NCBI GenBank assembly: GCA_041660885.1
Contig: JBAZVM010000008.1
Span: 7,537-71,536, forward strand
Reading direction: 5' to 3'
Origin: Patescibacteria group bacterium
GTDB lineage: Bacteria > Patescibacteriota > Patescibacteriia > UBA9570 > JAHJKD01
Length of the DNA: 64,000 nt
The notes below the pieces were generated by a model. The model had not been told where the DNA came from and did no database searches. It saw nothing but the letters and a program-made list of their open reading frames with translations. Positions 6,369 through 47,734 of the stretch are shown piece after piece (position 1 is the first letter of the stretch; each line of letters begins with the position of its first letter). The position numbers and the translations under genes are program-made.

Positions 6369-7036
6369 ATTATTTTTCCATCGGCTAAATGAATGATACG
6401 ATTGGCGAATACCTCTTCTTCCGGTTCGTGGGTGACCATGACAATCGTATGATTATCGTGTTTATTTAATTCTTTTAGAATTTTCATAACAGAATTGGCG
6501 GCCTGGGTATCCAAATTGGCCGTGGGCTCGTCCGCGAAAATCACTTTAGGATCGTTGATCAAAGCGCGGGCAATGGCCACTTTCTGTTTTTCTCCGCCGG
6601 AAAGCTGGTTCGGTAAACTTTTTATTCTTCTCTCCATTCCGACTTTAGATAATAAACGATGCGCTCTTTTTTCGCATTCTATTTTTTTATTAAGAAGCAT
6701 GGCGGGAAGCATGACATTTTCCAAAGCGGTTAGTTCGGAAAGCAAAGCGTATTCCTGAAAAATATAGCCAATTTTTGTTAAACGCATTTTCGCTCTTAAT
6801 TTTTCTTTCATCTGAATAACTTCCTCGTCTAATAAATGTATGGTTCCGGAATCGGGTTTATCCAATAAACCTAATTGCCTGAGCAAGGTGGATTTGCCGG
6901 AGCCGTTGCGTCCTTTAATAATTAAAAAATCTCCTTCGTGCAAATCGAAAGAAACCCCCTTTAAAGCGTGTACTTTTACATGCCCGCTTTCGTAAAATTT
7001 ATGAATATTGTGAACGGATACTATTTTATTCGGCAT
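6365..7036 (-). CDS. ABC transporter ATP-binding protein (MacB/LolD-like)
   Basis: Walker [11 protein letters not shown]-loop, signature [15 protein letters not shown], Walker [10 protein letters not shown]-loop VTHE. The start is moved to ATG 7034-7036 ([11 protein letters not shown]...) because the longer ORF (to 7099) runs through tRNA-Pro. Confidence 0.9.
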
Positions 7037-7050
7037 ATTACTTATGAATT

Positions 7051-7127
7051 TGGTCGGGGTAGAGAGACTCGAACTCTCGACCTCATGCACCCCATGCATG
7101 CGCGCTAGCCAACTGCGCTATACCCCG
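7051..7127 (-). tRNA. tRNA-Pro (anticodon GGG), CCA encoded
   Basis: Reverse complement CGGGGTA-TA-GCGC-AGTTGGCTA-GCGC-G-CATGC-ATGGGGT-GCATG-AGGTC-GAGAG-TTCGAGT-CTCTC-TACCCCG-A-CCA. This is a perfect cloverleaf of 77 nt with anticodon GGG. Confidence 0.88.
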
Positions 7128-7169
7128 GCAAAGCCTATTTTAGATAATTTATATGAGAAAAGCAAACTG

Positions 7170-7560
7170 TTAAGTGAAATGTGACCGCCGACCGCACGAA
7201 CGCGATTTGAAATCGAGTCCGCGCAGCCGACGGTGTCCCTTCAGATACGGTGCCAGCGGCTGATGCCGTCGGCACTTCGACGAAGGGTGAAGGTCCAGAC
7301 CAAGCCAGTAGCAAGGTCCTTTCCCTCGTAGAAACTGCGACCGCCCACGCACCAAAACCGAAGGACCAGAATCCCTACCATGATCCACCCCCTGACAAAA
7401 ACAAAAAGGCTTCTTACCCCAATAATAGTTCGGATAAAAAGCCTTCTTGCTTTTGCCCACTTGCGCGAGCCGTATCGTTCCCTTAGGGTAGGTTTTGCCA
7501 CCTTATCCAAAAGACAGGTTGGCGAGCAGTCATCGGGCCTAATCCCTCGTGCTTCTCTTG
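7170..7560 (-). ncRNA. Unclassified structured RNA candidate (strand uncertain)
   Basis: About 390 nt, visibly GC-richer than the surroundings and covered only by four mutually overlapping low-complexity ORFs on both strands. Complementary segments: 7182-7193 (TGAC-CGCCGACC) with 7517-7532 (GGTTGGCG-agca-GTCA); 7227-7233 CCGACGG with 7266-7272 CCGTCGG; 7315-7321 GGTCCTT with 7361-7367 AAGGACC; 7406-7412 AAGGCTT with 7439-7445 AAGCCTT. A GCTATAAT -10 motif on the minus strand at 7605-7612 and co-orientation with tRNA-Pro favour the minus strand. Confidence 0.45.
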
Positions 7561-7604
7561 ATAGTTTTAATTCTTAAAGAGCTATAAAAAGATACTAACA
7601 ATAA

Positions 7605-15914: not shown

Positions 15915-18900
15915 TTATTTAAACGGCTCCCAGCGATAAACTTCTTTTCCCTTGCCATTAATAATGGCGATAATTTTTTTATTTCTTATCTTCAAGCGAT
16001 AATCTCGGCGAATGTATTTATACATGCTTCGTTTCAACAAATGGAATTTATTATCCTCAATATTAAAGCTGTAAGCTTTTAGGTATATGGAAGAACCGCG
16101 CTTGGAAGAGACTACCACTTCTTCGGTGTTCTTTGTGGTATTCAAGTTTCCCACGGCCATTCTTCTCCAATGCAACTTGGGAGATAATCTTTTTGATGTG
16201 ATTAAAGTGCCAAGAGTGTCATAAACGCGCACAGACGAACCAGAGCGCTTTTTTACGGCAAAAACATAAATGTCGTTTTTGATTTCGGCTAATCTGGGAA
16301 GTACCCCGCCCACATGGAAAGCTTCCCAGCTGGCCATTAGCAGATGATCTTGGTTGAATAAACGGATTATACCCCTTCCCTTGTTAGTGCCCGTGCTGTA
16401 ATGCACTATTTCGCTGTCGGAATCATCGTCTGGCTCGGTTACGGAAACCAACACGGCATTGCTTTGGGCGGTTAAACTTCCGGAGTCTGTGGCAACAAAG
16501 TACACTTCCTCCGTACCAATATAATCTTCACTGCTGGTCATGGTAACTTCTCCATTGCTAACGGTAATTGTAATATCCGTATTACCGGTGACGGAATAAG
16601 ATAAGATAGGATCTTCCGCGTCTGAAAAATAACTATCTAAGTCAAAAACATTAGCTACGGTATCGCCGGCAAAAAATGAAACGCTTGAAAGTGACCCGGA
16701 AAAGGTCGGAGCGGTATTGGTTTCATCAATAGGGGCGGCGGTGTTATCCAGCGCGAAAGCCGCGCTCTCCACGGCCGTTCCAATGTCGGTGCCGTCGTAT
16801 GGCGTAATGCGTATTAGCGCGTCGGGCACATCTGCCGCAGGTTCATCAGTCATGGAATTCCATATAGACGAAACCGTGTTCGCGCCACTTGATGTTAAAA
16901 TATATCCCGCAGCCTCACCAATGGGATAGGCATTTGTATTATCTATTTCCGGATCGCCAAAGGTGGCCGTGGTATTATCGTCGGTTGTAGAAATAGTAGC
17001 TTTTTCCCAGCCCGCGCCGATATTATACTCTACAAGAGCTTCTACGGTGTCGTCATCGTCTGCGTCGTCCGCTTGAAAAGAAAAGGATACATCTCCGCTA
17101 TCATCCGCTACTTGAGAAGCGGTAACAGAAGCGGCTGTGGGCGCGGTATTTGCCGGACCGCCGCCGCCATCAAACGTAAACGCTACTTTCCCAACAGTTG
17201 GAGTATCAAAAGGATCGTCGGTATATAAAGTTGCAGCTAAATCCAAAGTGGCAGTGACGCCTGCATCAAAGCCTCCGCTGGCTGCCCAATCAGTGTTGAC
17301 CAAAGCGCTCATTTCCGTACTATCCATTTGGTTATTGGCGCCCGCTGCCACGGCCGCGGAAATGGCCGCGCTTTTATTGTTCGGAGATGCCGCTGTCCAA
17401 ACGCTGGCGTTATCGCGATAATACCAATTTCCTTCCGTGCCGCCATGATCTGAATTTTTATTGGAAGCGATGGCTCTCCATGAACCCCAAACTTTATAGC
17501 TGTCTCCGCCATCAAAGGAAACCGAGTAATACGCGTGCTGCCCGTTTAAAGTTTCCGTAACAGTAGCGGCATCTATACTTGTTTTTGCCGAAACATCCAA
17601 TTGGCTGGTGGCATTGGAACTGAAAGTAAAGTAAGTATCAGCCGGAACACCGTCTGGAATTACTTTATCCAGAGTTTGATTCCAAGTATCCCCCACCCAA
17701 GCTGCGCCATCCGCGTCAAAAATTAATGAGTCGGCGTATTCCACGGTGTTTGATTTTTCTTTTTTCAGCCTGCCGTTTGTCGGATCCACAATAGAAAAAG
17801 AACCTTCTTCGTCTTGCACTGTCCAAATTTCATTTCGAGCGGTATTCACTTGAACATCCAATGGATGCTGCCCCACTTCATAAAGCCCCATGGGTTCGCC
17901 GTCGGAAGTTCTGACGGCCGTAAGAAAACCGATTTCTACCGCGCTTAATAACGCACCGTCGACAGTCCAAAGCATGTCTCTGGTCGAATCATAAATGGTT
18001 TCATCCGCCCATTCATAGATTATTGGCAATGGATACTTACTATCAGTTACAGTACCATTGGCAAAAGCAGTATCGTGAACTTTCACCATATAACCGTAAT
18101 AATTCCATGTTGCCCAAATATCTTCGTGCGTTGAATCGTAAGTAATAGCGTTGATTGCTGCATCGGGGTCAAGCGTGGTATCTAACGACCCGTCGCTCGG
18201 GTCATACTGCAATAAAGTATCATCAAAATAAGATCCCACCCAAATGGCATCGTGTGCCACATCATATCCAACAGTAATTGGCATATTACTCGCGGCAAAA
18301 GTGCTGGCTCCAATGGTGCCAAAATGATAACTGCCGGTATCGGCATCAACAACTGTTATCGTATCATCATCGTAATTGGCTATCCATAAATTGTTTCTAC
18401 TGGAATCTAAAGCAATACCACGCGGGTCATTGCCCACGGCAGTGGTAATTAAAGTGGAAGTCGCAACATCCAAAATATTTACCGTATTATCAGCGGCGTT
18501 AGGAAAAAATATGTGTTCCCTGGTGGCATCAGCGGTCTTCGCGTATATTTCCGTATCAACAAATTGTTCCACATTAATAAAATCGTCGTTTAGCTTAACA
18601 GTGCCGTCTTGATTTTCCATACAAGTTATAGAATCAACAGTTATTTCTCCATCCAATAGAGCCAATTCATCGTAAATATCCAACGGCAAAATATTGTCTC
18701 TTGTTAGTTCCGCGCTATAACCAAGTGTGGCTTCATCAACTACTTGAACAAAAGTATAGACTGTTCCGCCGATATCTATTTTGCATCCCGGTTTTATTTT
18801 AGAAGCAGTAAGATCTATATAGATACTATTGTTATAATCATCCATGTCATGGTAAAAACTTACCAGCCCGTTTCCCCAAGGATAAAACGCACCAATGGTA

Positions 18901-20987
18901 GTGCTGGTAGTATCTTTAATATCTTCCTCGTCAAAATCCGAGATTTGTTCAAATTCAAATGCCGTAGTCGCGGTATCGTCATCCTGGTTTTTCACAGCTA
19001 CATCATCTGGATTGATACCGTTAAAACGCGTATCAGTAGAAGAAGTTGAACCAAGTTGAATGGTATAAGAAACTAGACCGTCGTTATCAGCATCATTTTG
19101 CCCGGTCACTGTTACGGTTTGCTCGGTTTCCCAATTGGCCGAGGTGAAAGTTAATAGCGCGGTGGAAACCGTTCCTTCGCTGGTGTCCGAACTGACCACG
19201 GGGATAGTAACATCATTTTGCGGACGGCTGGTTAAATAAACAGTGAATGTAGCCGTATCACCGTCTTCCGATGTTTCGCTGCTGATTTCAGAAACATAGA
19301 TTTCAATACTTTCCGAAAAATCGATATTCGTGTTTCCACTAATATCCACACAGCGCAAGCGGCAATCAAATTCCGCGCTGGTATTATTAATGTCGGTAAG
19401 GGCGGCATCAAAAAATAACACATCACCATCAAAATGTAATTCCGCCGGGGTGCCTGATGAAGTGCTGTAAACCGGCAGCCTGGTGCTGCGCGTAATGCCA
19501 TCCGTGGAAGAAACGCCAAGCCCGATTACTGCCTCGCGCGTAAATGTTTGCGTGTCGCCGGCGCCGAATTGGATATATCCGGTATAATCAGAATAATCTC
19601 TGGTAAAATTATAGAATGTATTATCTCCGGTAATAACATGGTTATTATGAGTTTGAGTGGAAAACTGCGCGAGGACAACCGTTCCTTCATTGGCATCGAA
19701 AGTTCCGCCGTTGTTATCCCAGTTTTCTCCCAATAACGTGGTCTCCGCTGCAGTATAAGTTCCTCCAACATTTAAGGTTAAATCCTTATAGAATCTCATA
19801 CTTGAATAAGTATCGCTGTCTATTTCTCCGGCATTAAGAGTCACGTCACCTTGAAATCCCATTGTGCCTTGAATTGTGGCGTTTGGATTATCCAAAATCA
19901 ACCCGGGAAGAAAATCTCCGCTCTCGGCTAGTGTAATGGTTTGAGTGGATGTTCCTGTCCAATGAATTATTCCGTCTCCTCCGTCGAAATCGTCTGCCCC
20001 GGTATTATTAATAGTGGTTTGTGCTTCGATGGTTCCGGTATAAACAGCGCCATCGGTTAAAGTTAAAACTCCTTCCGCCACTAAAGTGTCCCCTGTGGCA
20101 ATAGTGACTCGACGGAGGCTGGTTGTTTTATGAACTATAATATTATTCAATGTCAGGCTGGTGTTGACATCAGCGCCCGTATTGGAAGTTCCGCTGAATT
20201 CCAAAGTGCCGCCGTTATCATCGAAAGTTACCCCGCTCTGAACCGTAAGGTCGCCAGACAAAGTAAGCGTGCCTGATGTGGAAGTAAATGTACTGCCAGT
20301 ATTCAAAGTTAACGGACCTGTATCGGATATGGATTGCGTGGCGCCGGTAAAAGTTCCTCCATTTTGCACAAAACCGCTGGTACCAACGGCTAAAGTAGCC
20401 GCTTGGGTTATAACGCCACCATAATCTGAATCAATGGTAATCCCTGCAATCGTAACCGCTGTATTAATGGTGACACTTTTACTTGAAGTAGTGCCATCAA
20501 AAACTACGGTATCGGTTGTAAGCGGTGCCGTATTCAAATCCCAATTCTCCGGAGTGTTCCAGTTATTGTCTATTCCTCCGCCATCCCAAGTTTTAACGGC
20601 CGCGCTAGCGGACTTGGTAAACCAAGGAGTTCTATAAAAAGTCACGGCGGAAAAATCAGCGATGTATATTAAAGCGATAATGGCTAAGCCAAAACATAAA
20701 GCGTACGCTTGCACGCTTTCTTTTAGTTGAAGATGTTTATGATAAGAATGTTTATATGTGCCATTTCTGTGCCGTTTGGCTTCAAAATGAAAACTGCGAT
20801 AAGAGCTTAAAAAAAGCAGGCTGAAAGCCTGCGCAAAAGTATAAAAACAAACTAAAGGAAACAAAAGGAGCTTATGAAAAAAACCAAGAGCCGGTATTCT
20901 TTTTTTTTCAGTGCTTTTTTTAATAAAGTACGGAATCCTTTTCATAAATTTTTTAAAATACAAAAAATTATGCTCATATTTTAACAT
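15915..20987 (-). CDS. Giant surface protein paralog 1 (1690 aa; likely true start ATG 20945)
   Basis: An uninterrupted ORF. It carries the shared N-terminal module (from MKRIPYFIKKS...) and a W-DGGG..NW..NW start. Next come beta-helix-like T/G-rich repeats and a Ca/cadherin-like segment. YVTN/NHL-like propeller repeats follow (NLWIANYDDDTITVVD, DAIWVGSYFDDTLLQYDP, NEIWTVQDEEGSFSIVDP). It ends with the shared C-terminal domain. Confidence 0.8.
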   Translation of the reverse strand: MLKYEHNFLYFKKFMKRIPYFIKKSTEKKRIPALGFFHKLLLFPLVCFYTFAQAFSLLFLSSYRSFHFEAKRHRNGTYKHSYHKHLQLKESVQAYALCFGLAIIALIYIADFSAVTFYRTPWFTKSASAAVKTWDGGGIDNNWNTPENWDLNTAPLTTDTVVFDGTTSSKSVTINTAVTIAGITIDSDYGGVITQAATLAVGTSGFVQNGGTFTGATQSISDTGPLTLNTGSTFTSTSGTLTLSGDLTVQSGVTFDDNGGTLEFSGTSNTGADVNTSLTLNNIIVHKTTSLRRVTIATGDTLVAEGVLTLTDGAVYTGTIEAQTTINNTGADDFDGGDGIIHWTGTSTQTITLAESGDFLPGLILDNPNATIQGTMGFQGDVTLNAGEIDSDTYSSMRFYKDLTLNVGGTYTAAETTLLGENWDNNGGTFDANEGTVVLAQFSTQTHNNHVITGDNTFYNFTRDYSDYTGYIQFGAGDTQTFTREAVIGLGVSSTDGITRSTRLPVYSTSSGTPAELHFDGDVLFFDAALTDINNTSAEFDCRLRCVDISGNTNIDFSESIEIYVSEISSETSEDGDTATFTVYLTSRPQNDVTIPVVSSDTSEGTVSTALLTFTSANWETEQTVTVTGQNDADNDGLVSYTIQLGSTSSTDTRFNGINPDDVAVKNQDDDTATTAFEFEQISDFDEEDIKDTTSTTIGAFYPWGNGLVSFYHDMDDYNNSIYIDLTASKIKPGCKIDIGGTVYTFVQVVDEATLGYSAELTRDNILPLDIYDELALLDGEITVDSITCMENQDGTVKLNDDFINVEQFVDTEIYAKTADATREHIFFPNAADNTVNILDVATSTLITTAVGNDPRGIALDSSRNNLWIANYDDDTITVVDADTGSYHFGTIGASTFAASNMPITVGYDVAHDAIWVGSYFDDTLLQYDPSDGSLDTTLDPDAAINAITYDSTHEDIWATWNYYGYMVKVHDTAFANGTVTDSKYPLPIIYEWADETIYDSTRDMLWTVDGALLSAVEIGFLTAVRTSDGEPMGLYEVGQHPLDVQVNTARNEIWTVQDEEGSFSIVDPTNGRLKKEKSNTVEYADSLIFDADGAAWVGDTWNQTLDKVIPDGVPADTYFTFSSNATSQLDVSAKTSIDAATVTETLNGQHAYYSVSFDGGDSYKVWGSWRAIASNKNSDHGGTEGNWYYRDNASVWTAASPNNKSAAISAAVAAGANNQMDSTEMSALVNTDWAASGGFDAGVTATLDLAATLYTDDPFDTPTVGKVAFTFDGGGGPANTAPTAASVTASQVADDSGDVSFSFQADDADDDDTVEALVEYNIGAGWEKATISTTDDNTTATFGDPEIDNTNAYPIGEAAGYILTSSGANTVSSIWNSMTDEPAADVPDALIRITPYDGTDIGTAVESAAFALDNTAAPIDETNTAPTFSGSLSSVSFFAGDTVANVFDLDSYFSDAEDPILSYSVTGNTDITITVSNGEVTMTSSEDYIGTEEVYFVATDSGSLTAQSNAVLVSVTEPDDDSDSEIVHYSTGTNKGRGIIRLFNQDHLLMASWEAFHVGGVLPRLAEIKNDIYVFAVKKRSGSSVRVYDTLGTLITSKRLSPKLHWRRMAVGNLNTTKNTEEVVVSSKRGSSIYLKAYSFNIEDNKFHLLKRSMYKYIRRDYRLKIRNKKIIAIINGKGKEVYRWEPFK

Positions 20988-21013: not shown

Positions 21014-24000
21014 TTAAAATGGTTTCCAGCGGTAGACTTCTTTGCCCTTACCGTTGAGGACTACGATGACATTCTGATCCTCTATCTGCAAACGATAATC
21101 TTTGCGCACATATTTGAATTTAGATCTCTTTTCTAAAGTGAAATGATGCGAATCCGGATTAAAACTATAAATTTTAAAGTATATTGAAGAAGCGCGCTTG
21201 GTGGCGATGGCGGTTTCTTCGGTGTTAATTCTTCCGTCTAAATCTCCGATAGCTATTTTTCTCCAATGTAATTTTGGGGATAATCTTTTTTTGGCTAATA
21301 ATCTTCCTCTTATAGTATAAGCGTGCAAAGTGGTGCCTGATCTTTTCTTAATGGCAAAGATGTAAGAATTATTTTTAATGGCGGCCAAACGAGGTATAAC
21401 TCCACCCACTCCGAAAGCCTGCCATGATGTTATCAGTTCGTTATTTTTAGTCCAAACTTTTATTATTCCTCTTCCCCTGTTGGTTCCGGTGATATGATCA
21501 ATATCGCTTTCCGTAAACTTTGAAACTGTTACTATTATGGCATTGCTGGTGGCGGTTTCTCCGGAAGGATCTTCAGCTATAAAATTCATGGCTTCTTGGC
21601 CGGAATAATTATTATCCGTTTCCATGGTAACTATTCCTTCTTCAATATTAACGGTTATTTCCTCGTTGCCCGTTGCCGAATAAGTTAGAACATCTCCTTC
21701 GGCATCGGCAAAGTAATCGTTCAGGTCAAACAGCGCGGCCGTGGTTATGCCGGAATAGAAAGAAACATTAGGCAGAGAGCCGACAAAGTAAGGAGGCGTA
21801 TTGGTTTGTTCAGAAACATTATTTACGGTGATATCCAAAGTATGAGAAACCGTGTTTTCCGCGTCAGTCGCGTCGAAACGCACTTGATAAGTGCCCGCGT
21901 CATCGGCGCCGGTGTGCCAAGTAAAGGTGCCGGATTTATTTCCATGATCAGTGAAGAGTTCATTAATATTACTTAAATTTCCCAGCATATCTACTGCGTC
22001 TAAAGTAATAGCGGAACTGTCCACATCAGCGGCTGTGATAGGCAATACGATAGTATCTCCTTCGTCTACTGTTACGCTGTCGTTGATGTCGGTGACGAAA
22101 GTGGGAGCATCGTTGCTGGCGGTGACATGAATGGTAATTTGGTCTACGCCGGAATCCACGGTTCCGTCGTTTACCGTTAAGCTATAAACGCAATCGTAGC
22201 TAGATTCTTTATTCAAGAGAGTAACGGTTGGCGTGGCGCTGGTGTTGTTATCTAAGCTGCAACCATCTCCGCTGTCAGATACTTCCGTCCACGCGTAGGT
22301 AATAACATCTCCGGTATCTACATCAGAACCAGTTCCACTTAAAGCAACAGATCCGGCAGACTCGTTTGTATTAATATCAACGCCGGCATCAGCTATTGGC
22401 GTATCATTAACCGGATCTACGGTTAAAGTAATGTCATTACTGTCTACCGTAGCTAAACCGGTATCCGTGCATCTGAATTTTACAGTCTGGTTGCCGTTGT
22501 AATTTGCGTCCGGTGTGAAAGATACTTTATTATCACCGTCTATGCTTACGGTAATGTTGGCGGGGTCTGTTGGTACGGTATAGGTGCAGCTGTCTCCGGG
22601 GTCGATATCAGTGAAGTAAGTGTCTAAATCAAAAGCATTGGTTTTGGTGGTGTCTTCGTCCCAAGCCATAACAGAAATAATACCGGCAAAAGTCGGGGCA
22701 TCATTAACATTGGAAACATTCACGGTGATGGAATTGGAAGCAGTGGAAGCGCTGCCTAAGTCTTCACAAGAGAATTGGATAGTGTCTGTGCCAGTGGCAT
22801 TGGCTAATAAGGTAAAGTCTATGGTTTGATCTCCGTTAATAGTCATGGTGCCTAATGCTGCGGCTAAATCATTGGTAGCAGTGCAAGTGTATAGGTCGTT
22901 ATCATTCCAATCAGCATCAGAGAAGTAAGTGTCTAAATCAAAAGCATTTGGCGTATTTACATCTTCTGTTAAATTTTGAGTGGGTATACTGCTATCTAAA
23001 GCAGGTGATGTGTTTAGAGTAGTAAAATTGGTGCAAGAAGAATAACTGGAATCGCCACTGGTTTGATCATCGCTATAGCGTACTTTGAAAGAATATTGCG
23101 TGTGTCCTTTAAGATCTGTTTTACCCGCATGGCTGTTTTGGAAAGAACCATCGGTAGAATCAATATCTATGCTGGTTAAGTTTGTTCCGCTGTCTTCTTT
23201 TTGCCAAATAGCTGAACCGGAACAATCAGAAGATTCATAAACATACCAATCACTGGATGTGTGCGGATCTGAATCAGAGTCGCTAAAGGCTGATGCGGTT
23301 AAAGTGGCATTCTTGCTTTGGTCTGTGGCGCCATTGATTGGTAAAGAGTTGGTTGGCGTAGGGGGAACATTATTAGCTGCCGAGGTAAAGTTTACCGGGG
23401 TGGACCAATCTGAATCTCCACCCGGAGAGGCGTATCTAACGCAAGCGTAATAACTGGTGTTGGCTGTTAATCTTGTTTTTCCTGCTAATGCTCCTGAGAA
23501 GGTACCATTGGTGCTGTTAGCTGTTATGCTGGTTTTGTTTACGGCATCATTATCTTTAGACCAAACAATATTGCTAACGCAAGAATTGCTGGTGGAGATA
23601 GTCCAATCAGAGCTTTGGTGTTCGCCATAACCGCTGTAAGCGCTGCCGCTCATAGCCGGAGTCCTAGTTGAATCGCTCATGGTTAGGGTAGGAGCATTGG
23701 CTGTGGCATCGTATTCCAGAGTAATACTGTCTAGTTCCACTTCTTCCGTGGTATCGGAGATTAAGAAAGCTTTAAAGTAGAAGTCTCCGGTGCCAATTTC
23801 AGAAGGAAAATTAATTAAATAGGCGTTTACTTGCTCAATCGTATTGTATTGAGAAGGCTCACTCGTTACCGCTGTCCAAGCCGCGCCATTATGGTAGTAC
23901 CAGTCTGTGCCATTATCGGAAATATTATAGCCGATGGATCCTTCTACCGTTCCGGTTGTCGCGCTTATGCCTAATAAATTGGTATAAGTGGGGTGCGTGC

Positions 24001-27000
24001 CGGCTAAAGACGGAGAAACCGTGATATCAGAGAAAGTAGAATTGTTTTCAATGCCACCGGGAACGAGAGTGGGTTCAATGGTGGCGTATTTGCGGATTCT
24101 AAAATTATCTATCTTGGCACCGGTTGAAGTTTCATAATTATATAAACCAACATATCCCGAAGTCCAAGTGGCTTCAGTATAAGAATTAGATGCTACTAAG
24201 GCGGTTTTTTCCTGATCAGTATAATATTTCGTATTAAGAGTTGTTCCGGAAAAAATTTCACTCATATACATCCAGACATTGTCGGAAAATGTATAATCTT
24301 TAGAATTAAGGATGCCACCCCACCCAGCGGATACACGATGATGAAAATAATTAGTATTAACCGGATGTCTTTTAATACTAACATCAACATTATCCGCATT
24401 GTTTTTTGCCTGAGAACGATGCATCATGCCATTGTCCATCGTGGTGTGGGCATAAAGATCATAATCCATGGCGTAATTAGTAAATGAAGAAGCAGAATCA
24501 GCCATAATAAAATTATAACCAGCGCCGCTAACATAATTTAATGTACCGCCTGTCGTATCAAAAGTTCCGGCAATAGCCACCCACTTGCTTAAGTCACCGC
24601 TAAAATCGTCGAAAAACTCAAACGTGTCCGTGCCACTACTAGCACTGCTCACGCCGGCATTGCCATAATACATATATATATTCGCGGAAGAGGAGGCGCC
24701 AACGCTTGGTACTTCCACCCAGAAATAAGCTCTGGTGGAATCAGTTTTACTTTCCAACCAATAGTCTATTAATGATGTGCCATTTGAAGAGGTAAATCTG
24801 ATGTCATCAAAATCCGCTTGCATATCAGCATCGTAACTAACTGGAATACGCACCTGATAGTTGGTAAGCTCAGAAGCCGTATTATTAAACACGGTAAATA
24901 TTTGCCTTTTAGACCAATCGGCCAAAGCAATACTGGATTCTTCGGTCCAAGCAATTATTGGTTCACTAGAAACATTCTGACGGACACGGAAATCATCAAA
25001 ATAAGCAGCGGCTGTACCCGTATTATATGTCGCCATTCCAACATAACCGCTATTATTGGTTGTAGCTGTGTCCGCGACACTCCAACCTCCGGAATCGGGT
25101 GTATTAAGAATCCAGCTCTTGCCGCGTATATTATTTCCTTCTATTTGAAACCGCCAATTCCACCATTCGCCAGTTGCTTGCGCGGTTGTCGTAGAAGCCT
25201 TCCACACAATATTTTCATCTAACAATTGGAGTGTTGTTGATGCAACATGCGCAGTAAGTGCATATTCCCTGGAGCTACTTGTTGTAAGAGCATTCCCCCT
25301 TCCTAGAAGATAGATATGCGAATCACCTCCGCCAACCGTTGAAAGATTAACTTTTGCATCTATAATCGTATCTGTAACGCTTAATAATGAGCCATCTACA
25401 TTTGCGAGCACTTTGTCGATCGTTCCGGAGCTAACATCCGGTCTATATAAGGTATTACTAGAAATTTGCCAATTGCCGTCTCCATATTCACTCCAATCCG
25501 CACCTAGACTAGTTGAATCATCGCGATTAAAGTCATCAAAGAAAATAAATGTATTATCGCCGCTAGAGCCGCTTGAAACAGTCGCATTCCCATAATACAT
25601 ATATATGGTAGCCGATGAAGAAGCGGAAATAGTCGGCACTTCCACCCAAACAACGGCTCTGCTGGAATCGGTTTTACTTTCCAGCCAATAGTCTATTTCT
25701 GTTGTACCGTTAGAGGTAGTAAATCTTAAATCATCAAAATCCGCTTGCATGTCGGCATCATATAAAACATCTAGTTTCACTTGATAATTTGTAAGTTCAG
25801 ATGCAGTGGCATTAGTGACGGTAATTTCTTTGCGTTTTGTATAGTTGAGCAAAGGCGCTCCTTTATATACTCCGGCGCCTTGATCTTTTAATCTGGCTAA
25901 ACTATTGCTGGAAGCGTCTAACTCCACATAAGTATTGTTATAATCATAATTATCTCCGACAACAGCTTCATTAAAATGCCAAGTGGCATCAGTAGATGGA
26001 TAATCATATTCCGTGGTAAAGGTCACTGAACCCCAATCGCTGTCTCCTGCGTCGTTGGTATAGCGCACGCAAGATTTGTATGTTGTGTTATTTGATAAGC
26101 CAGCACCAACCGTGATAGAAGTAAGATTAACCGCGTCGTGTTCCGATTCCCAAACAGCCGCATCACTGCACGTGTCGGTGGAGGCGACGATTTTCCAATC
26201 AGTAGTATTATGCGTTATATCCGACACATAAGCGGAACCCGTCATTGTCGGCGTTAGGCTGTTGTTATAAGAATTATTCAAGGGGCTTGAAAATGAAGGT
26301 GTGTCCGCGACAGATACTTCAATTAATGAAGAAGTTCCAGCTTCCCCAGCATATCCAGTGGTTCCGGCAATCACGCTTAAGGAGCCACCATAGGAATCAT
26401 CGCTAGTGGATATATAAATGCGTCCACCGCCACCGGCGCCGGCATTGGCGGTTTGCGCGCTAGAACCATTCGTCGTAATGTTGGCGCTTCCGGTGAGTGA
26501 TCCGGTTATAGCCGCCCAAACAGAGCCTCCGGAACCGCCTCCATAGTTACTGCTAGATCCGCTGTAATCTGATCCACCGTTGGCGCTGATCGTGCCGCCT
26601 ACGCTCATATTTCCACCGACGGTAAGTTTTACCGCGCCGCCGCCGGAAGATCCATAATTGGAAGCCGTGCTTCCCATGCCTCCTGAACCGATATTGGAAG
26701 GAGCAGTTTCCGAGCCGTATGTGGCGCCACCAGTGTCTCCACCGTCTGAAGTGTTTCCTCCGCGGCCGCCGTATCCGCCGCCGGATCCATAAGTGCCGGC
26801 ATCATGGCCATGGCCATCGCCATAGCCGCCGTTATAACCTTTTCCATCCACATTAATCGTTCCGGTTGCTCCAATAGTAGCGTCTCCTGTTGTGGTGTAA
26901 ACAATTTTATATGTTTCCGCGGTAGTATTCTTCGATGTGGTCATTGTGCCATCAACATCCAAAGAATTTATTGATCGAGTTGTGTCGGCATATAGTATTG

Positions 27001-30000
27001 CGCTTGTTGGAATGTTAAGATCAGCGCTCGCGCCAAACATAGAAGCCCATGTTCCTCCGCTGTCAGTAATGTTTCCTCCTGTCCAAGTATTCGTCGTAGA
27101 TGTAATAGTAGTATCGGAATTCAATAAAAGATGCCCATCGTTGGAAATTGTTACCGCATCAAATGTAAATGAAGCCGGCGTACCGCTATTAGTAAGCGGT
27201 GTTTTACCATAATATTTCACTCCGTTTGTCACATCATCATGGCTGCCGTTGTCAATCACTAAGAGATCACTATTTAAAGTGTTATCTTTCCAATAGACCG
27301 TGCCGGCGCCGCCAAAATAAGTGCCTCCGGTTATCCAACCGCCATAAGCTGTCGGTGTGATTGTTGAAGAGTTGGTGTCATAGTAAATGGCTATGCGTCC
27401 GCCGCCGCCGCCTTCACCACTAGTATTGCATGGGTTGCCCCCTCTGACAGTGATAGTACCCGCTCCTTGAAGCGTTGCCGCATCAAGATATACCGAACCG
27501 CCGGAACCACCGCCGCTGGAGTCGCATTGCCCGCCAGAGGGATCATTCGCGTTGGCAGAAATACTTCCGGAAAGAATTAAGTTACCGCCAACAGTTAGCT
27601 TAACAGCTCCGCCGCCCCAGATAGTTCTTTCATCGCAGTACCAGCAACTGCCCGAACTACCTATATCCGTCGGCGCGGTAAGAGATCCGTAAATTAAACC
27701 CGAAGTTGCGCTTGGGTTATACCCTTGCCCGCCATAACTAGCTCCCTTGTTATTATTATCAGGCTTTCCATCTCCGTAGCCAGAATAGAATCCTTTTCCC
27801 ACCGCATTTATAGAAGCATCGGATTGAATGGTAAAATTATTTGTAGTTGTTAAATCCATCTTATAACTGGCTACCGAATAATTTTGTGAATGTGTTAAGA
27901 CTCCATGGACATCCATACTATTGAATGTACGCGTCGTATCCGCGAACAAATAAGATCCGTCAGGCACAACCACATCCGCATCGCTGGCAAAATAATCGTC
28001 TAATATGCCGCCCCGATCCGTTATGTTCCCTCCGGTCCAATCAAAGTGCGTATAATCAATAGTTGTATCGGAATTTAATAGAAGATTTCCGTCATTTGAT
28101 ATGGTAAGCGTATCAATAGTCAGCGAAAGAGGCGTGCCGCTGGGAGTTAGCGGGGTTCTGCCAATCCAATAATCGCTAATGGTATAATTATGGGAATTAT
28201 TATCAATAATTAAATTCTCATAAGCGTCTAAATTTCCATTTATATAAACCGTACCGGCTCCGCCCAATCCTTCGGGATAACTCGCATTATAGCCGCCATA
28301 GGCGGTTGGCGTGCTAGAATAAGTATCATGATCGTAATATAGAGCTACGCGTCCGCCGCCGCCGGATTTATTAGAACCGGTGCTGCCGTCCGCTGTTATC
28401 GCTCCCGCTCCGTCTATAGTATCAACATCCAAATAAATTGAACCGCCTCCAGCGCCATATTCGGATCCGCTGGTGCCGACAGCGACAATTGTGCCAGTCA
28501 TGGTTAGTGTACCGCCAACTGTAAGCTGCACGGCGCCGCCGCCATTAGTGGAACTAGAAACGGAACCGCCACCACCGCTACCTAATGTTATCGGATTAGT
28601 TATGGAACCGTAAGTCAATGATTTATCGTACCAGACCGAACCGGCTCCTTGCCCTCCATGACCACCACCGCTGCCTCGGCCATATGAGTCTCCTCCGCCG
28701 TGTCCGTCTCCTTGTTCATAAAAAAATCCGCGGGAGGTGACATTAACAGAACCGCCCGAGGCAATATTAAAATTTCCCGTTGTTTCCACATTTAAGCGAT
28801 ATACGGCCGTAGAATAATTTTGCGAATGAGTTAGCGTGCCATTCACTTCCATGGAAGTATAGGCTGAGCCGCCTGTTCTTGCTGAATTGGCGTATAGATA
28901 GGATCCGATCGGAACAACTACGGCACCGGAAGTGACAGTACTTAAAGAACCTCCATTATCCGTAATATTTCCACCTGTCCAATTTAGCGTTGTGCTGCAA
29001 GTTAGAGTTTGCCCGCTCTCTAACGCTAAATGTCCGTCATTACTAATGGTGCAAGTATTATAAGACGCGGTGCTAAGAGGGGTTTTTCCAATATAGAAAT
29101 CACCAACTTGGCCGGTGCTGTCTTTGCTGTTGTTATCTATAATTACGGTATCCGTAACTGCGGTGTTATCTTTTATATAAATCGTGCCGGCGCCGCCGAA
29201 ATGCGTACTAGTACCCCCGTAATTTCCGCCATAAGCTTGCTTCGTAATGCTGGAACTGTTGTCCGTGTCGTAGTAAATGGCAATGCGTCCCCCGCCACCA
29301 TCGCCGTAGGCATTAGAATTCCCCGTCGCACCATTTACAGTTACTGTTCCCGCTCCGGATAGAGTGCCGACACTAAGATAAATAGATCCACCCGACCCTC
29401 CGGCGCCAAGGCTGGTATGGTTTCCGCCATCCGCGTGAATGTGTCCGGAAATAGTTGCCTCGCCTTCCACGGTTAAACGCGCGGCACCGCCGCCTCTGGA
29501 ATCGCCGCAACAATAAGTGCCGCCCCCGCATCCCAGATCCACTGGCGCGGTCACGGAACCGTATGAGCTTCCACCGGCTCCGGAATATCCATCTCCGCCT
29601 GTTCCGCCGTATCCGCCGCCGCCGGAAGTATTGCCGTTTGTGCCCTTTCCGGTTCCATACCCGGAAATATATCCTTTACTGCTGACATCAATCGCTCCGG
29701 CCATAGTGGCATCTCCGGTTTGCACATCTATATAAACCGAACCAACAACAGAACCGGAAGAAGCCGCGGTATGCGTAATCGTGCCATTTGATTCAACTGT
29801 TAAATCATCTTCATCTATATTAAGCGCTCCGGATGTGATCGCGTCATAATCAAAATTTAAAATAGTCGGGTTTGTGCCGCCTAAAGTTAATGAATTAACA
29901 GTTGTAGTGCCATTGATATTAATGGTTTCATTATAATCAATCAAAACATCGTCCGCGGCATCTGGCACGGTATCATCGGACCAATTTTCTTTAGTCTCCC

Positions 30001-30397
30001 AATCGTTATCCACGCCACCGCTATCCCAAGAAACACTCGCTGCTCGCGCTTCTTTCGTTAACAAAGGCTGTCGAGAAAAGGCAACAGTTGATAAATCAAC
30101 GAAATAGATTAAAGAAATAATGCCAAGACCTAAGGCAATGGTATAAGCACGCACTCCTCTTTTTAGTTTAAGATGCTCGTGGTAAGAATGTTTATATGTA
30201 CTATTCTTACGCTGTTTGGCTTCAAAGTTAAAGCTATGGTAAGGACTTAAGAATAATAAGTAAAAAGCATGAACAACGGAGTAAATACAGATTAAAGGTA
30301 ATAATAATAGTTTATGAAAAAACTTAGAAACAGGAGTTCTTTTCTTTTTATTGCTCTTTTTTATAATGTCTGAAATTCGCTTCACAAATAAAGACAT
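21014..30397 (-). CDS. Giant surface protein paralog 2 (3127 aa)
   Basis: An uninterrupted ORF. It has the shared N-module and about 5 Gly-rich beta-helix units of ~315 aa (GGGGRIAIYYDT, GGAGTIYIKD). Two DUF2341-like modules are present (..ELTNYQV...DADMQADFDDxRFTxSxGT..DYWLE...WVEVP...IYMYYGN), each followed by a ConA/LamG-like domain. FN3-like units and cadherin-like modules with NDAPTF/VNDTPIA boundaries come next, then the shared C-domain. Confidence 0.85.
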   Translation of the reverse strand: MSLFVKRISDIIKKSNKKKRTPVSKFFHKLLLLPLICIYSVVHAFYLLFLSPYHSFNFEAKQRKNSTYKHSYHEHLKLKRGVRAYTIALGLGIISLIYFVDLSTVAFSRQPLLTKEARAASVSWDSGGVDNDWETKENWSDDTVPDAADDVLIDYNETININGTTTVNSLTLGGTNPTILNFDYDAITSGALNIDEDDLTVESNGTITHTAASSGSVVGSVYIDVQTGDATMAGAIDVSSKGYISGYGTGKGTNGNTSGGGGYGGTGGDGYSGAGGSSYGSVTAPVDLGCGGGTYCCGDSRGGGAARLTVEGEATISGHIHADGGNHTSLGAGGSGGSIYLSVGTLSGAGTVTVNGATGNSNAYGDGGGGRIAIYYDTDNSSSITKQAYGGNYGGTSTHFGGAGTIYIKDNTAVTDTVIIDNNSKDSTGQVGDFYIGKTPLSTASYNTCTISNDGHLALESGQTLTCSTTLNWTGGNITDNGGSLSTVTSGAVVVPIGSYLYANSARTGGSAYTSMEVNGTLTHSQNYSTAVYRLNVETTGNFNIASGGSVNVTSRGFFYEQGDGHGGGDSYGRGSGGGHGGQGAGSVWYDKSLTYGSITNPITLGSGGGGSVSSSTNGGGAVQLTVGGTLTMTGTIVAVGTSGSEYGAGGGSIYLDVDTIDGAGAITADGSTGSNKSGGGGRVALYYDHDTYSSTPTAYGGYNASYPEGLGGAGTVYINGNLDAYENLIIDNNSHNYTISDYWIGRTPLTPSGTPLSLTIDTLTISNDGNLLLNSDTTIDYTHFDWTGGNITDRGGILDDYFASDADVVVPDGSYLFADTTRTFNSMDVHGVLTHSQNYSVASYKMDLTTTNNFTIQSDASINAVGKGFYSGYGDGKPDNNNKGASYGGQGYNPSATSGLIYGSLTAPTDIGSSGSCWYCDERTIWGGGAVKLTVGGNLILSGSISANANDPSGGQCDSSGGGSGGSVYLDAATLQGAGTITVRGGNPCNTSGEGGGGGRIAIYYDTNSSTITPTAYGGWITGGTYFGGAGTVYWKDNTLNSDLLVIDNGSHDDVTNGVKYYGKTPLTNSGTPASFTFDAVTISNDGHLLLNSDTTITSTTNTWTGGNITDSGGTWASMFGASADLNIPTSAILYADTTRSINSLDVDGTMTTSKNTTAETYKIVYTTTGDATIGATGTINVDGKGYNGGYGDGHGHDAGTYGSGGGYGGRGGNTSDGGDTGGATYGSETAPSNIGSGGMGSTASNYGSSGGGAVKLTVGGNMSVGGTISANGGSDYSGSSSNYGGGSGGSVWAAITGSLTGSANITTNGSSAQTANAGAGGGGRIYISTSDDSYGGSLSVIAGTTGYAGEAGTSSLIEVSVADTPSFSSPLNNSYNNSLTPTMTGSAYVSDITHNTTDWKIVASTDTCSDAAVWESEHDAVNLTSITVGAGLSNNTTYKSCVRYTNDAGDSDWGSVTFTTEYDYPSTDATWHFNEAVVGDNYDYNNTYVELDASSNSLARLKDQGAGVYKGAPLLNYTKRKEITVTNATASELTNYQVKLDVLYDADMQADFDDLRFTTSNGTTEIDYWLESKTDSSRAVVWVEVPTISASSSATIYMYYGNATVSSGSSGDNTFIFFDDFNRDDSTSLGADWSEYGDGNWQISSNTLYRPDVSSGTIDKVLANVDGSLLSVTDTIIDAKVNLSTVGGGDSHIYLLGRGNALTTSSSREYALTAHVASTTLQLLDENIVWKASTTTAQATGEWWNWRFQIEGNNIRGKSWILNTPDSGGWSVADTATTNNSGYVGMATYNTGTAAAYFDDFRVRQNVSSEPIIAWTEESSIALADWSKRQIFTVFNNTASELTNYQVRIPVSYDADMQADFDDIRFTSSNGTSLIDYWLESKTDSTRAYFWVEVPSVGASSSANIYMYYGNAGVSSASSGTDTFEFFDDFSGDLSKWVAIAGTFDTTGGTLNYVSGAGYNFIMADSASSFTNYAMDYDLYAHTTMDNGMMHRSQAKNNADNVDVSIKRHPVNTNYFHHRVSAGWGGILNSKDYTFSDNVWMYMSEIFSGTTLNTKYYTDQEKTALVASNSYTEATWTSGYVGLYNYETSTGAKIDNFRIRKYATIEPTLVPGGIENNSTFSDITVSPSLAGTHPTYTNLLGISATTGTVEGSIGYNISDNGTDWYYHNGAAWTAVTSEPSQYNTIEQVNAYLINFPSEIGTGDFYFKAFLISDTTEEVELDSITLEYDATANAPTLTMSDSTRTPAMSGSAYSGYGEHQSSDWTISTSNSCVSNIVWSKDNDAVNKTSITANSTNGTFSGALAGKTRLTANTSYYACVRYASPGGDSDWSTPVNFTSAANNVPPTPTNSLPINGATDQSKNATLTASAFSDSDSDPHTSSDWYVYESSDCSGSAIWQKEDSGTNLTSIDIDSTDGSFQNSHAGKTDLKGHTQYSFKVRYSDDQTSGDSSYSSCTNFTTLNTSPALDSSIPTQNLTEDVNTPNAFDLDTYFSDADWNDNDLYTCTATNDLAAALGTMTINGDQTIDFTLLANATGTDTIQFSCEDLGSASTASNSITVNVSNVNDAPTFAGIISVMAWDEDTTKTNAFDLDTYFTDIDPGDSCTYTVPTDPANITVSIDGDNKVSFTPDANYNGNQTVKFRCTDTGLATVDSNDITLTVDPVNDTPIADAGVDINTNESAGSVALSGTGSDVDTGDVITYAWTEVSDSGDGCSLDNNTSATPTVTLLNKESSYDCVYSLTVNDGTVDSGVDQITIHVTASNDAPTFVTDINDSVTVDEGDTIVLPITAADVDSSAITLDAVDMLGNLSNINELFTDHGNKSGTFTWHTGADDAGTYQVRFDATDAENTVSHTLDITVNNVSEQTNTPPYFVGSLPNVSFYSGITTAALFDLNDYFADAEGDVLTYSATGNEEITVNIEEGIVTMETDNNYSGQEAMNFIAEDPSGETATSNAIIVTVSKFTESDIDHITGTNRGRGIIKVWTKNNELITSWQAFGVGGVIPRLAAIKNNSYIFAIKKRSGTTLHAYTIRGRLLAKKRLSPKLHWRKIAIGDLDGRINTEETAIATKRASSIYFKIYSFNPDSHHFTLEKRSKFKYVRKDYRLQIEDQNVIVVLNGKGKEVYRWKPF
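22380..23800. repeat. Long inter-paralog repeat, copy A (partner 31870-33290)
   Basis: The DNA aligns by eye with 31870-33290 at a constant offset of about 9490. The core, about 22690-23800, is nearly identical. It encodes the identical peptide FYFKAFLISDTTEEVELDSITLEYDATANAPTLTMSDSTRTPAMSGSAYSGYGEHQSSDWTISTSNSCVSNIVWSKDNDAVNK... Confidence 0.8.
26340..29900. repeat. Internal tandem array of ~0.95-kb Gly-rich beta-helix units in paralog 2
   Basis: Recurring protein blocks: ...NV.GKGY.GGYG.G.......GG.YGG.GG.......YGS...P...GSGG......GGGA.KLTVGG.L...G.I.A.G......GGGSGGS.Y......G.G.ITA.G......GGGGRIAIYYD......P.AYGG.......GGAGT.Y... Boundaries are approximate. Confidence 0.6.
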
Positions 30398-30421
30398 TGA
30401 AGTGAAAAAATTATTAATAAT

Positions 30422-30430
30422 ATTATAACA
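30422..30430 (-). promoter_or_regulatory. Extended -10 promoter TGTTATAAT for giant paralog 2
   Basis: The minus strand reads ttttTGTTATAATattatt, about 24 nt before ATG 30397. The same 9-mer precedes paralog 3. Confidence 0.45.
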
Positions 30431-30432
30431 AA

Positions 30433-30465
30433 AAATACGAAATAAAACAATCAGTTTTCGTATTT
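30433..30465 (-). terminator. Candidate intrinsic terminator after giant paralog 3
   Basis: The minus strand reads AAATACGAAA-actgattgtttta-TTTCGTATTT followed by TTTT. The stem is 10 bp and AT-rich, extendable by flanking A/T runs. Confidence 0.45.
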
Positions 30466-30484
30466 TTTTATGTGATAAAAAATT

Positions 30485-33400
30485 CTATTCAAACGGAGTC
30501 CAACGAAAGACTTCTTTGCCCTTGTCGTTAAGAACTATGATGACGTTTTTATTTTCTATTTGCAGGCGATAATCCTGGCGCACATATCTGAACATGCTTC
30601 TCTTTTGTAAATGAAATTTATTATCATCGGTATTGAAACTATAAACTTTTAAGTAAATGGAAGCTCCACGTTTAGAAGCAACCACAATTTCTTCCGTGTT
30701 CTTAGTGGTGTTTAGATTGCCCACGGACATCTTTCTCCAATGCAATTTGGGAGATAATCTTTTTGCTGTGATGAAATTGCCATCTATATCGTAAGCGCGA
30801 ATAGAAGAGCCAGCTCTCTTTTTTACGGCAAAGACATACATATGATTTTTAATCTCGGCTAATCTGGGAATCACTCCGCCTACGGGGAAAGCTTGGAAAG
30901 TGGTTATCAAAACATTATCTTCCGTATAAAGGTTTACTATACCTCTTCCCCTGTTGGTACCGGTACAGTAATTCACTTCTTGGTCTTCGGTATTTCCATC
31001 TTCCGCCGCGGTAACGCTGACAATCATTTCATTGCTTTCCGCCGTGGCGCCATCCGGATCAGCCGCGATAAAACGCATATCTTCGGAGCCTTCGTAACTT
31101 GCATCAGCGGTAAATGTCACTTCGCCATTATCATTTATATTTGCAGTAACATCTTGATTTCCGGCAACGCTATAGGTTAATAGATCGCCATTAGGATCAG
31201 AGAAATAATCATCAAGGTCAAATACAACCGGGGTAGTTGTGCCAGCAATAAAGGAAACGTTATCTAAACTGCCGGCAAACATCGGGGCGATATTAGTTTC
31301 AATTACGGTTATGTTTAATACTTGAGTAACATTATTATCGCTGTCGCTGGCTTGGAAAGTAGTAGTATAGGTACCGGCTTGATCCAGGGTTGGGGTCCAA
31401 GCAAAAGTGCCGGTGTTATTGCCATTGTCGGTAAACAAAGTAGCAATGTCTACTCCGATATTTGAATAATCATTAGTCGTATCCAAAGCGCTTAATGTTA
31501 GGCTGGAGGTATCAACATCGTTGGCCCCTACCGAGAAAGTAAGATGAGAGCCGGTGCCAATGGTTTTTTCATCAATAGACACAAAAGATGGAGCATCGTT
31601 ATCAGCGGCTACTTCTATGAGCATATCATCAGCCGCGGAAGTTACGGTGCCATCATTTACTTCCAAAGAATATCGGCAAGCGTAATTAGAACTTTTATTA
31701 ATAATTGCCACTGAGGGATTAATGGTGGTGGATCCGGTTAAGCTGCAAGCATCAGAGGCATCCAGCGTTTCTACCCATTGGTAAGTTATAACATCGCCGG
31801 TATCAACATCGCTTGATCCGGAACCATCCAGCGTAACCGTGGCTGCATCTTCATTCACATTTTGGTTGCTTCCGGCATTAGCTATTGGCGTATCATTAAC
31901 CGGATTAACCGTCAAAGAAATGTCTCCGCTGTCCACTGTGGCCAAGCCAACATCCGTGCATCTGAATTTAACAGTTTGGCTGCCGTTGTAATTTGCGTCA
32001 GGAGAGAATGATACTTCATTGTCTCCGTCTATGTTTACGGTAATGTTGGCGGGGTCTGTTGGTACGGTATAGGTACAGCTGTCTCCGGGGTCGATATCAG
32101 TAAAATAAGTATCTAAATCAAAAGCTAGATTTTTGTCAGTATCTTCATTCCAAGCAGCTACTGTCGGTGATCCGGCAAAGGTTGGGGCATCATTAACATT
32201 AGCAACATTCACGGTGATGGAATTGGAAGCAGTGGAAGCGCTGCCTAAGTCTTCACAAGAGAATTGGATGGTATCCGTGCCAGTGGCATTGGCTAATAAG
32301 GTAAAGTCTATGGTTTGGTCTCCGTTAATAGTCATGGTGCCTAATGCTGCGGATAAATCATTGGTAGCAGTGCAAGTATATAGGTCGTTATCATTCCAAT
32401 CAGCATCAGAGAAGTAAGTGTCTAAATCAAAAGCATTGGGTGTATTTACATCTTCTGTTAAGTTTTGAGTGGGTATACTGCTATCTAAAGCAGGTGAAGT
32501 ATTTAACGTGGTGAAATTGGTGCAAGAAGAATAGCTGGAGTCTCCACTGGTTTGATCATCAGAGTATCTTACTTTGAAAGAATATTGAGTGTGTCCTTTT
32601 AAGTTTGTTTTACCAAGATGGCTGTCTAAGAAAGAGCCGTCTGTGCCATCTATATCTATACTGGCTAAATTAGTAGCGGTGTCGACAGCGCTCCAAATAG
32701 CAGAACCGGAACAATCAGAAGATTCGTACACATACCAATCACTATATGTGTGCGGATCTGAATCAGAGTCGCTAAAGGCGGAAGCGGTTAAAGTGGCATT
32801 CTTGCTTTGGTCTGTGGCACCATTGGTTGGCAAAGAATTGGTGGGGGTAGAGGGAACATTATTAGCAGCCGAGGTAAAGTTTACCGGAGTGGACCAATCT
32901 GAATCTCCTCCCGGAGAAGCGTATCTAACGCAAGCGTAATAACTGGTATTGGCTGTTAATCTTGTTTTTCCTGCTAATGCTCCTGAGAAGGTACCATTGG
33001 TGCTGTTGGCTGTTATGCTGGTTTTATTTACGGCGTCGTTGTCTTTAGACCAAACAATATTGCTAACGCAAGAATTGCTGGTGGAAATAGTCCAATCAGA
33101 GCTTTGATGTTCGCCATAACCGCTGTAAGCGCTGCCGCTCATAGCCGGAGTCCTAGTTGAATCGCTCATGGTTAGAGTGGGGGCGTTGGCTGTGGCATCG
33201 TATTCCAGAGTAATACTGTCTAATTCCACTTCTTCCGTGGTATCGGAGATTAAGAAAGCTTTGAAGTAGAAATCTCCTGTGCCTACATCAGTGGCAAAGG
33301 TTGGTAAATAGGCGTTTACTTCGGCTATAGTATTGTATTGGGATGCTATACTTGTAACTGCTTCCCAAGAAGTACCATCATGGTAATACCAATTCGTGCC

Positions 33401-40654: not shown

Positions 40655-40696
40655 GAAATTATTAAAATATATGAAATAACAAAAAACTTATTAATT

Positions 40697-40705
40697 ATTA
40701 TAACA
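40697..40705 (-). promoter_or_regulatory. Extended -10 promoter TGTTATAAT for giant paralog 3
   Basis: The minus strand reads tatgTTATAATaatta, about 42 nt upstream of ATG 40654 and just downstream of the ligA stop. Confidence 0.45.
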
Positions 40706-40719
40706 TAATATATAATTTC

Positions 40720-42702: not shown

Positions 42703-42705
42703 ATA

Positions 42706-45918: not shown

Positions 45919-45933
45919 AGCTTTATTATAACA

Positions 45934-45965
45934 AAAAAAGCCCCTCAATAAAAGGGGCTTTTTTC
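45934..45965 (-). terminator. Intrinsic terminator after the major pilin gene
   Basis: The minus strand reads AAAAAAGCCCC-ttttattga-GGGGCTTTTTTT, starting 12 nt after the pilA stop. A GC-core stem plus a U-tract. Confidence 0.8.
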
Positions 45966-45976
45966 TGAGCTAAAAA

Positions 45977-46456: not shown

Positions 46457-46461
46457 TCTTT

Positions 46462-47731: not shown

Positions 47732-47734
47732 ATT

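Follow-up and report, generated by a model that had tools for sequence, protein, structure and literature searches.

Three giant genes and a tract common to two of them

The window, a 64,000-nt stretch of a Patescibacteria metagenome-assembled genome (MAG) contig, carries three tandem giant open reading frames (ORFs), P1, P2 and P3, on the minus strand, and the subject of this report is a 1.35-kb tract that recurs in register in P2 and P3 (Table 1). The giant genes are flanked by gatA and ligA, with a complete type IV pilus cluster just beyond them (pseudopilins, PilD, PilC, PilT, PilB and PilM, plus an FG-GAP protein). Each is full-length, with its own start and its own N-terminal anchor, and the P2 and P3 ORFs are both intact. 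Pfam searches of whole proteins and of 400-aa segments, together with inspection of the N-terminal sequences, resolved P2 into an N-terminal transmembrane anchor, ~315-aa repeat modules, two DUF2341 domains, a weak ConA-like segment, an immunoglobulin (Ig)/cadherin-like stalk, a PKD domain, Ig and a conserved C-terminal domain. P2 and P3 follow a common plan, including a ConA/LamG-type module, an Ig/cadherin/Big_9 array, a K319L-type PKD domain and further Ig domains, to which P3 adds Laminin_G_3 at aa 215–371 and aa 2208–2336 (nt 33647–34033). Their C-terminal ~1030 residues are collinear. P1 is a third paralog that has only the N-terminal and C-terminal modules in common with P2 and P3 by blastp. 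The giant proteins resemble stalks or adhesins of the cell surface, with a putative role in adhesion or host attachment.

Table 1. Giant genes, homogenised tract and further islands (window coordinates; bracketed dS ranges are bootstrap intervals)
Feature	Position (nt)	Strand	Details
P1 giant gene	15915–20987	-	1690 aa; ORF list
P2 giant gene	21014–30397	-	3127 aa; ORF list, Pfam
P3 giant gene	30485–40654	-	3389 aa; ORF list, Pfam
Homogenised tract in P2	22448–23791	-	aa 2203–2650; same-codon test, max-chi2
Homogenised tract in P3	31937–33280	-	aa 2459–2906; offset +9489
Block A	P2 23204–23791, P3 32693–33280	-	P2 aa 2203–2398; dS 0.28 [0.18–0.40], dN 0.007
Dip 1	P2 23060–23203, P3 32549–32692	-	P2 aa 2399–2446; dS ~1.3, dN 0.21, 73% nt identity
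Block B core	P2 22682–23008, P3 32171–32497	-	P2 aa 2464–2572; dS 0.18 [0.09–0.30], dN 0.008
Second dip, between blocks B and C	22640–22681	-	14 codons
Block C	P2 22448–22639, P3 31937–32128	-	P2 aa 2587–2650; dS 0.55 [0.29–0.99], dN 0.06
N-terminal island	P2 30188–30376, P3 40445–40633	-	P2 aa 8–70; same-codon fraction 0.81 vs 0.40 outside; dS 0.47
Middle island	P2 25673–26230, P3 35228–35788	-	P2 aa 1390–1575, P3 aa 1623–1809; same-codon fraction 0.73 vs 0.46; dS 0.74

A first-pass annotation of this DNA had described a near-identical stretch shared by P2 and P3. The repeat itself is real: blastn self-comparison pairs 22383–24039 with 31872–33527 at 86.4% identity over 1659 columns (E = 0), and the 50-nt identity profile is mosaic, reaching 96–98% at 22700–23000 and 86–98% at 23200–23800, dipping to ~64–66% at 22650 and 23150, and standing at only ~66% from 23800 to 24050. 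"Near-identical" therefore overstates a similarity of 86% overall and ~94% in the two core blocks, A and B. The two copies are separated by a constant offset of 9489 nt (3 × 3163), which keeps them in frame; at the 9490 nt implied by the annotation, identity is at chance level (15–36% per 100 nt). The long identical peptide runs that it reported are confirmed (144, 83, 49 and 30 aa), and the longest exact nucleotide match anywhere, 68 nt, lies within the tract.

The tract is located in the Ig array and codes for about four Ig/cadherin-like stalk domains. AlphaFold2 modeling of P2 aa 2187–2671 yielded about four all-beta domains (mean predicted local distance difference test score, pLDDT, 75), whose best Foldseek matches in the PDB are the N-cadherin ectodomain, the GhpA base, protocadherin-15, SraP and SiiE. 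Just 5' of the region common to both genes, P3 carries Laminin_G_3, and the corresponding P2 segment is unrelated to it (BLASTP E = 0.38); the earlier assignment of LamG to P3 alone thus stands at the sequence level, with the qualification that the P2 segment has a sub-threshold ConA-fold match (3keto-disac_hyd, 21.7 bits). The presence of unrelated modules at this position indicates that module replacement has occurred in the history of these genes. The N-terminal halves of both proteins are built from tandem ~945–954-nt (~315-aa) modules (P3 36828–39277, P2 27063–28163) that have no Pfam match and differ in number between the two genes. Within P3, 36828–38317 and 37773–39277 are 69% identical, and P2 windows from the repeat-module region map onto P3 out of order.

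Homogenisation of P2 and P3 at silent sites

The collinear C-terminal ~1030 residues were aligned as codons, and the proportions of synonymous (pS) and nonsynonymous (pN) differences were computed by the Nei–Gojobori method in 40-codon windows. The flanks of the tract, collinear and homologous at 61–66% nucleotide identity, are saturated at silent sites (pS ~0.65–0.9, about 0.7) with nonsynonymous divergence (dN) of 0.2–0.5, whereas within the tract pS drops to 0.08–0.24 and pN to ~0. The strong divergence of the flanks noted in the first-pass annotation is thereby borne out. Protein-level constraint was then removed by a same-codon test restricted to codons for an amino acid identical in both genes. 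At such positions P2 and P3 agree in their codon in 84% of cases in blocks A and B and in 76% in block C, compared with 44% and 50% in the two flanks and an expectation of 40% from codon usage (Fisher p = 3e-20, inside vs flanks). A two-breakpoint max-chi2 scan gave 97.8, against a maximum of 24.6 among 500 permutations (0/500), and placed the breakpoints at P2 aa 2191–2644 (nt 22466–23827). Since the synonymous collapse persists under the same-codon test, protein constraint alone is insufficient to account for it, and the DNA of P2 and P3 was homogenised.

The tract does not differ from its flanks in GC content or in third-position GC (GC3), and a foreign origin of the tract was rejected on that basis. 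We also considered a history without recombination, in which codon bias, the structure of the mRNA or some overlapping element would directly hold the silent sites; in its favour, the module is clearly under unusually strong selection. Alternative-frame and antisense ORFs in the tract are short and do not correspond between the two copies, and no Rfam family matches it, so an overlapping ORF or a structured RNA was rejected as the source of silent-site conservation. The codon-usage expectation and the fractions in the flanks of the same genes likewise speak against direct constraint. Moreover, the 35 codons of P2 aa 2429–2463 encode a peptide identical in P3 and yet differ by 14 synonymous and 0 nonsynonymous changes, so that silent sites there are near-saturated and protein constraint at this site does not hold them. 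Direct silent-site constraint is, in our judgement, extremely unlikely.

Within the tract, the blocks are separated by two dips (Table 1), for neither of which does the window hold another donor by word-7 blastn; they look like unconverted patches, left by a discontinuous tract or between separate events. Dip 1 sits within the second predicted Ig domain. Block edges do not coincide with the predicted Ig-domain boundaries, which fits an event at the DNA level and speaks against exchange of whole modules. The proposal that exchange shuffles passenger modules accordingly finds no support: the exchange seen here is in register and homogenising. Block A carries 31 synonymous and 3 nonsynonymous differences that are randomly scattered, as expected from one event followed by clock-like decay, and the clumping of differences in block B stems from its 5' edge. 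Separately, a 27–35-nt motif coding for NAFDLDTYF recurs in two neighbouring Ig domains of P2 (22607–22641 and 22916–22948, 309 nt apart) and in the upstream domain of P3 (32405–32439), with 97% identity among these copies over 33–35 nt. The downstream P3 copy (32096–32130) has three silent changes. This stretch may be a trace of intragenic micro-conversion, for which the evidence is weak.

Further high-identity islands had been proposed at the N-modules, in the middle of the genes and at the C-domains. These were examined with a window-by-window map and per-region permutation tests (300 each). The N-module match (blastn 30015–30435 vs 40272–40686, 81%) and the middle match (25579–26935 vs 35134–36493, 74.7%, offset 9555) both contain an island with synonymous signal (0/300 permutations each; Table 1), and in the core of the middle island, aa 1441–1520, pS falls to ~0.3. 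The remainder of 25900–26900 is conserved at the protein level only. The same is true of the C-domains, where the blastn match is between P1 and P3 (72.9%): comparisons of P1/P3, P1/P2 and P2/P3 showed no synonymous signal there (39–178 of 300 permutations as good), and these "islands" were rejected as products of exchange. As no synonymous-site signal of P1 against P2 or P3 was detected, P1 takes part in no exchange. The two additional, weaker islands indicate that exchange between P2 and P3 occurred more than once. At the N-terminal end, P2/P3 similarity continues ~35 nt upstream of the start codons (upstream regions 30398–30484 and 40655–40719), and a hairpin with 22-nt arms, which falls short of terminator-scan thresholds, lies at 30421–30477 between the P3 stop and the P2 start.

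Age, process and alternative explanations

Over the 322 codons of blocks A and B, P2 and P3 are separated by 52 synonymous but only 5 nonsynonymous substitutions, which gives a dN/dS ratio (omega) of ~0.02; most are C<->T changes at third codon positions, and there is no A-specific bias. Almost no amino-acid change has accumulated since the event; judging from this substitution pattern, both copies are evidently functional, and strong purifying selection acts on this part of the stalk. With synonymous divergence (dS) of 0.18–0.28 in the best blocks, rather than ~0, the description of the event as recent does not hold in absolute terms; only by comparison with the saturated flanks can it be called recent.

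Diverged collinear flanks, together with synonymous divergence that stays lower inside after control for constraint, are the pattern of gene conversion, and the earlier interpretation of the tract as a footprint of recombination between paralogs is upheld by the collapse of silent divergence inside saturated flanks. Ectopic, non-reciprocal homologous recombination is the standard mechanism for such homogenisation. We therefore regard ectopic gene conversion between old tandem paralogs, followed by purifying selection, as the probable explanation. P2 and P3 would be old tandem paralogs coding for giant, N-terminally anchored surface proteins whose C-terminal ~1030 residues diverged anciently. 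A 1.35-kb piece, comprising the approximately four stalk domains, would then have been overwritten in one gene by the sequence of the other through non-reciprocal homologous recombination, presumably of RecA type, in either one discontinuous event or two or three events that left two short patches unconverted. Since then, some 0.2–0.3 synonymous substitutions per site would have accumulated with hardly any amino-acid change. The islands at the N-terminus and near 25.7–26.2 kb would be traces of earlier and weaker exchanges between P2 and P3.

The mosaic was previously attributed to ongoing segmental exchange serving antigenic or adhesive variation. In such programmed variation, the paralogs would act as donor and acceptor cassettes, with frequent segmental exchange varying an adhesin. 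Consistent with it, at least three exchanges between P2 and P3 have taken place in the course of evolution, adjacent Ig domains share the possible micro-patch described above, and the surface-protein genes of this episymbiont lineage adjoin type IV pilus genes. The genes themselves argue otherwise. Self-blastn of the giant-gene region (15001–41500) and the ORF list revealed three full-length ORFs and no silent or partial cassettes, and no ORF of at least 200 aa in the window contains a reverse transcriptase domain or a recombinase. A diversity-generating retroelement was rejected on the lack of reverse transcriptase and on differences that are mainly C<->T, third-position and synonymous rather than at template adenines. 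Tandem Repeats Finder (TRF) reported only two 2-copy repeats of 12–15 nt as simple-sequence tracts, and inverted repeats flanking a segment or promoter are only short and imperfect; phase variation by an invertible element or by simple sequence repeats was rejected on these grounds, together with the missing recombinase. In addition, the youngest block already has a dS of 0.18, omega of ~0.02 denotes conservation and not diversification, and where contigs from two further samples overlap the window, they match it at 100% identity. A dedicated variation mechanism is hence highly unlikely.

A different history leading to the same mosaic picture is that the tract is the remnant of a comparatively recent duplication, with the flanks later replaced by divergent alleles from other strains or paralogs. 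Replacement of segments did take place in these genes, as the non-homologous modules just 5' of the common region and the differing numbers of repeat modules attest. Applied to the tract, flank replacement needs many more events than conversion does, and the two flanks are homologous and collinear, with evenly saturated silent sites along a length that exceeds 1.4 kb on one side. The three islands also have three different dS values, and GC3 bears no foreign signature. We consider this scenario improbable.

The tract could also be a chimera of metagenome assembly, in which a mis-join gave one gene a tract that belongs to the other gene in a related strain. The sequence does come from a MAG contig, and the contigs of two further assemblies of this organism end within P3. 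These contigs, L003 and L004 (equivalent to window 40557–49797 and 39283–45292; sources Logan SRR18595301 and ENA ERZ27249449), come from the two other samples mentioned above and both stop before the tract. Of their end points, 40557 falls within the N-terminal island and 39283 borders the internal 945-nt repeats of P3. That two assemblies end inside P3 demonstrates that the giant genes do fragment short-read assemblies, which makes the earlier warning of an assembly hazard plausible. Against a mis-join, the blocks differ between the copies by 6%, nearly all of it synonymous and in frame, both giant ORFs are intact, and towards the edges identity declines gradually to ~65%. As the longest exact match, of 68 nt, is internal to the tract, no k-mers are shared at the would-be junctions. 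A chimera is thus unlikely on internal grounds, and we think it very improbable overall.

Several points weigh against gene conversion as a complete account. P2 aa 2429–2463 shows constraint where the DNA is not homogenised, so part of the P2/P3 peptide identity derives from purifying selection and not from conversion. The tract is covered by no independent assembly, and neither an exact look-up of P2 nor protein searches, in an index that apparently contains no proteins longer than ~1030 aa, returned a fragment from the same organism that spans it. Finally, the comparison involves two sequences only: protein searches and scans of genome and metagenome contigs returned, as closest external homologs, proteins of Patescibacteria and DPANN with only 43–61% aa identity, too distant to serve as an outgroup for silent-site analysis or for tests of phylogenetic incongruence.

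As documented here, inter-paralog gene conversion reaches giant surface-protein genes of Patescibacteria, a lineage in which attachment to the host is little understood. Selection maintains both paralogs, and the Ig-stalk segment with omega of ~0.02 is a candidate functional site. More speculatively, and with low probability, the stalk segment that was homogenised and then frozen might form a shared functional interface that both giant proteins would require unaltered, such as a docking or processing site tied to the adjacent type IV pilus machinery, with occasional P2–P3 exchange helping to tune host attachment. In practical terms, a 1.35-kb, 94%-identical direct repeat at a distance of 9.5 kb, accompanied by further repeats, can break or mis-join short-read assemblies.

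Gene neighbourhood and relation to known systems

On Magasanikbacteria-type contigs (L005 8090–15037; L002 104–3880), a single giant homolog, of 2315 aa in L005, lies directly downstream of pilB- and pilT-like genes. The linkage of a giant gene to the type IV pilus cluster is conserved in these contigs; the tandem triplication is not. In the window, two large ORFs of 526 and 686 aa without Pfam match (57626–61079, minus strand) adjoin the pilus cluster and the FG-GAP protein (55083–57563), and the 686-aa ORF, when taken from its first TTG start, overlaps the 526-aa ORF by ~190 nt.

Elsewhere in the window, a match to the S-adenosylmethionine (SAM) riboswitch (RF00162, 51 bits) at 7469–7567 on the minus strand is followed by no credible ORF. 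The 341 nt between it and tRNA-Pro (7051–7127), at 7128–7468 on the same strand, include a GC-rich stretch (56–61% at 7200–7400) and fold into four long hairpins (z = -6.95; 0/100 shuffles as good). Apart from spurious matches to microRNA precursors, no Rfam family matches this segment, which may be an unannotated structured RNA according to the folding prediction. An ATP-binding cassette (ABC) transporter ATPase ORF at 6365–7099 (minus strand), taken from its first ATG, overlaps tRNA-Pro by 49 nt, and its true start is probably further downstream.

Among known systems, Neisseria pilE/pilS, Borrelia vlsE and Mycoplasma genitalium mgpB/MgPar combine one expression site with many silent truncated cassettes and high-frequency switching. 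P2 and P3 resemble them in that segments pass non-reciprocally from one surface-protein sequence to a related one, but neither the silent truncated cassettes nor the high-frequency switching is present. In structure, the tract resembles the giant Ig/cadherin-repeat adhesins or hooks SiiE (2yn3), SraP (4m00) and GhpA (9fly) as a string of Ig/cadherin-like beta domains. Sequence identity to these is only 10–16%, and P2 and P3 differ from them by an N-terminal membrane anchor, DUF2341/LamG modules and the lack of features of RTX proteins or type I secretion systems (T1SS). Pfam matches for RTX (HemolysinCabind) are absent from the giant proteins, and the neighbours are GatA, LigA and type IV pilus genes, which led us to reject a RTX/T1SS giant adhesin of the SiiE/LapA type.

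Yeast FLO adhesin paralogs undergo ectopic recombination (PMC3512402). They share with P2 and P3 recombination among repeat-rich paralogs for cell-surface adhesins, and yield chimeric alleles. FLO genes differ in being eukaryotic and subtelomeric and in generating new phenotypes, whereas P2–P3 exchange is in register and homogenising. The adhesin paralogs babA, babB and babC of Helicobacter pylori, which undergo inter-paralog gene conversion (PMC3960876, PMC4552749, PMC4271554), likewise are full-length surface-protein genes that swap internal segments by homologous recombination, with mosaic identity and a sharp drop of silent divergence in the segment exchanged. Unlike bab, P2 and P3 belong to a Patescibacteria MAG, span 9–10 kb each, stand in tandem and share a tract that is old (dS 0.2–0.3) and strongly conserved, without documented strain-to-strain or within-population variation. 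No report of gene conversion in surface proteins of the Candidate Phyla Radiation (CPR) was found in the literature searched. The P2/P3 tract is a case of ordinary gene conversion between paralogs, not of a dedicated variation system or a new mechanism, and adds a new example from an unusual lineage and in unusually large genes.

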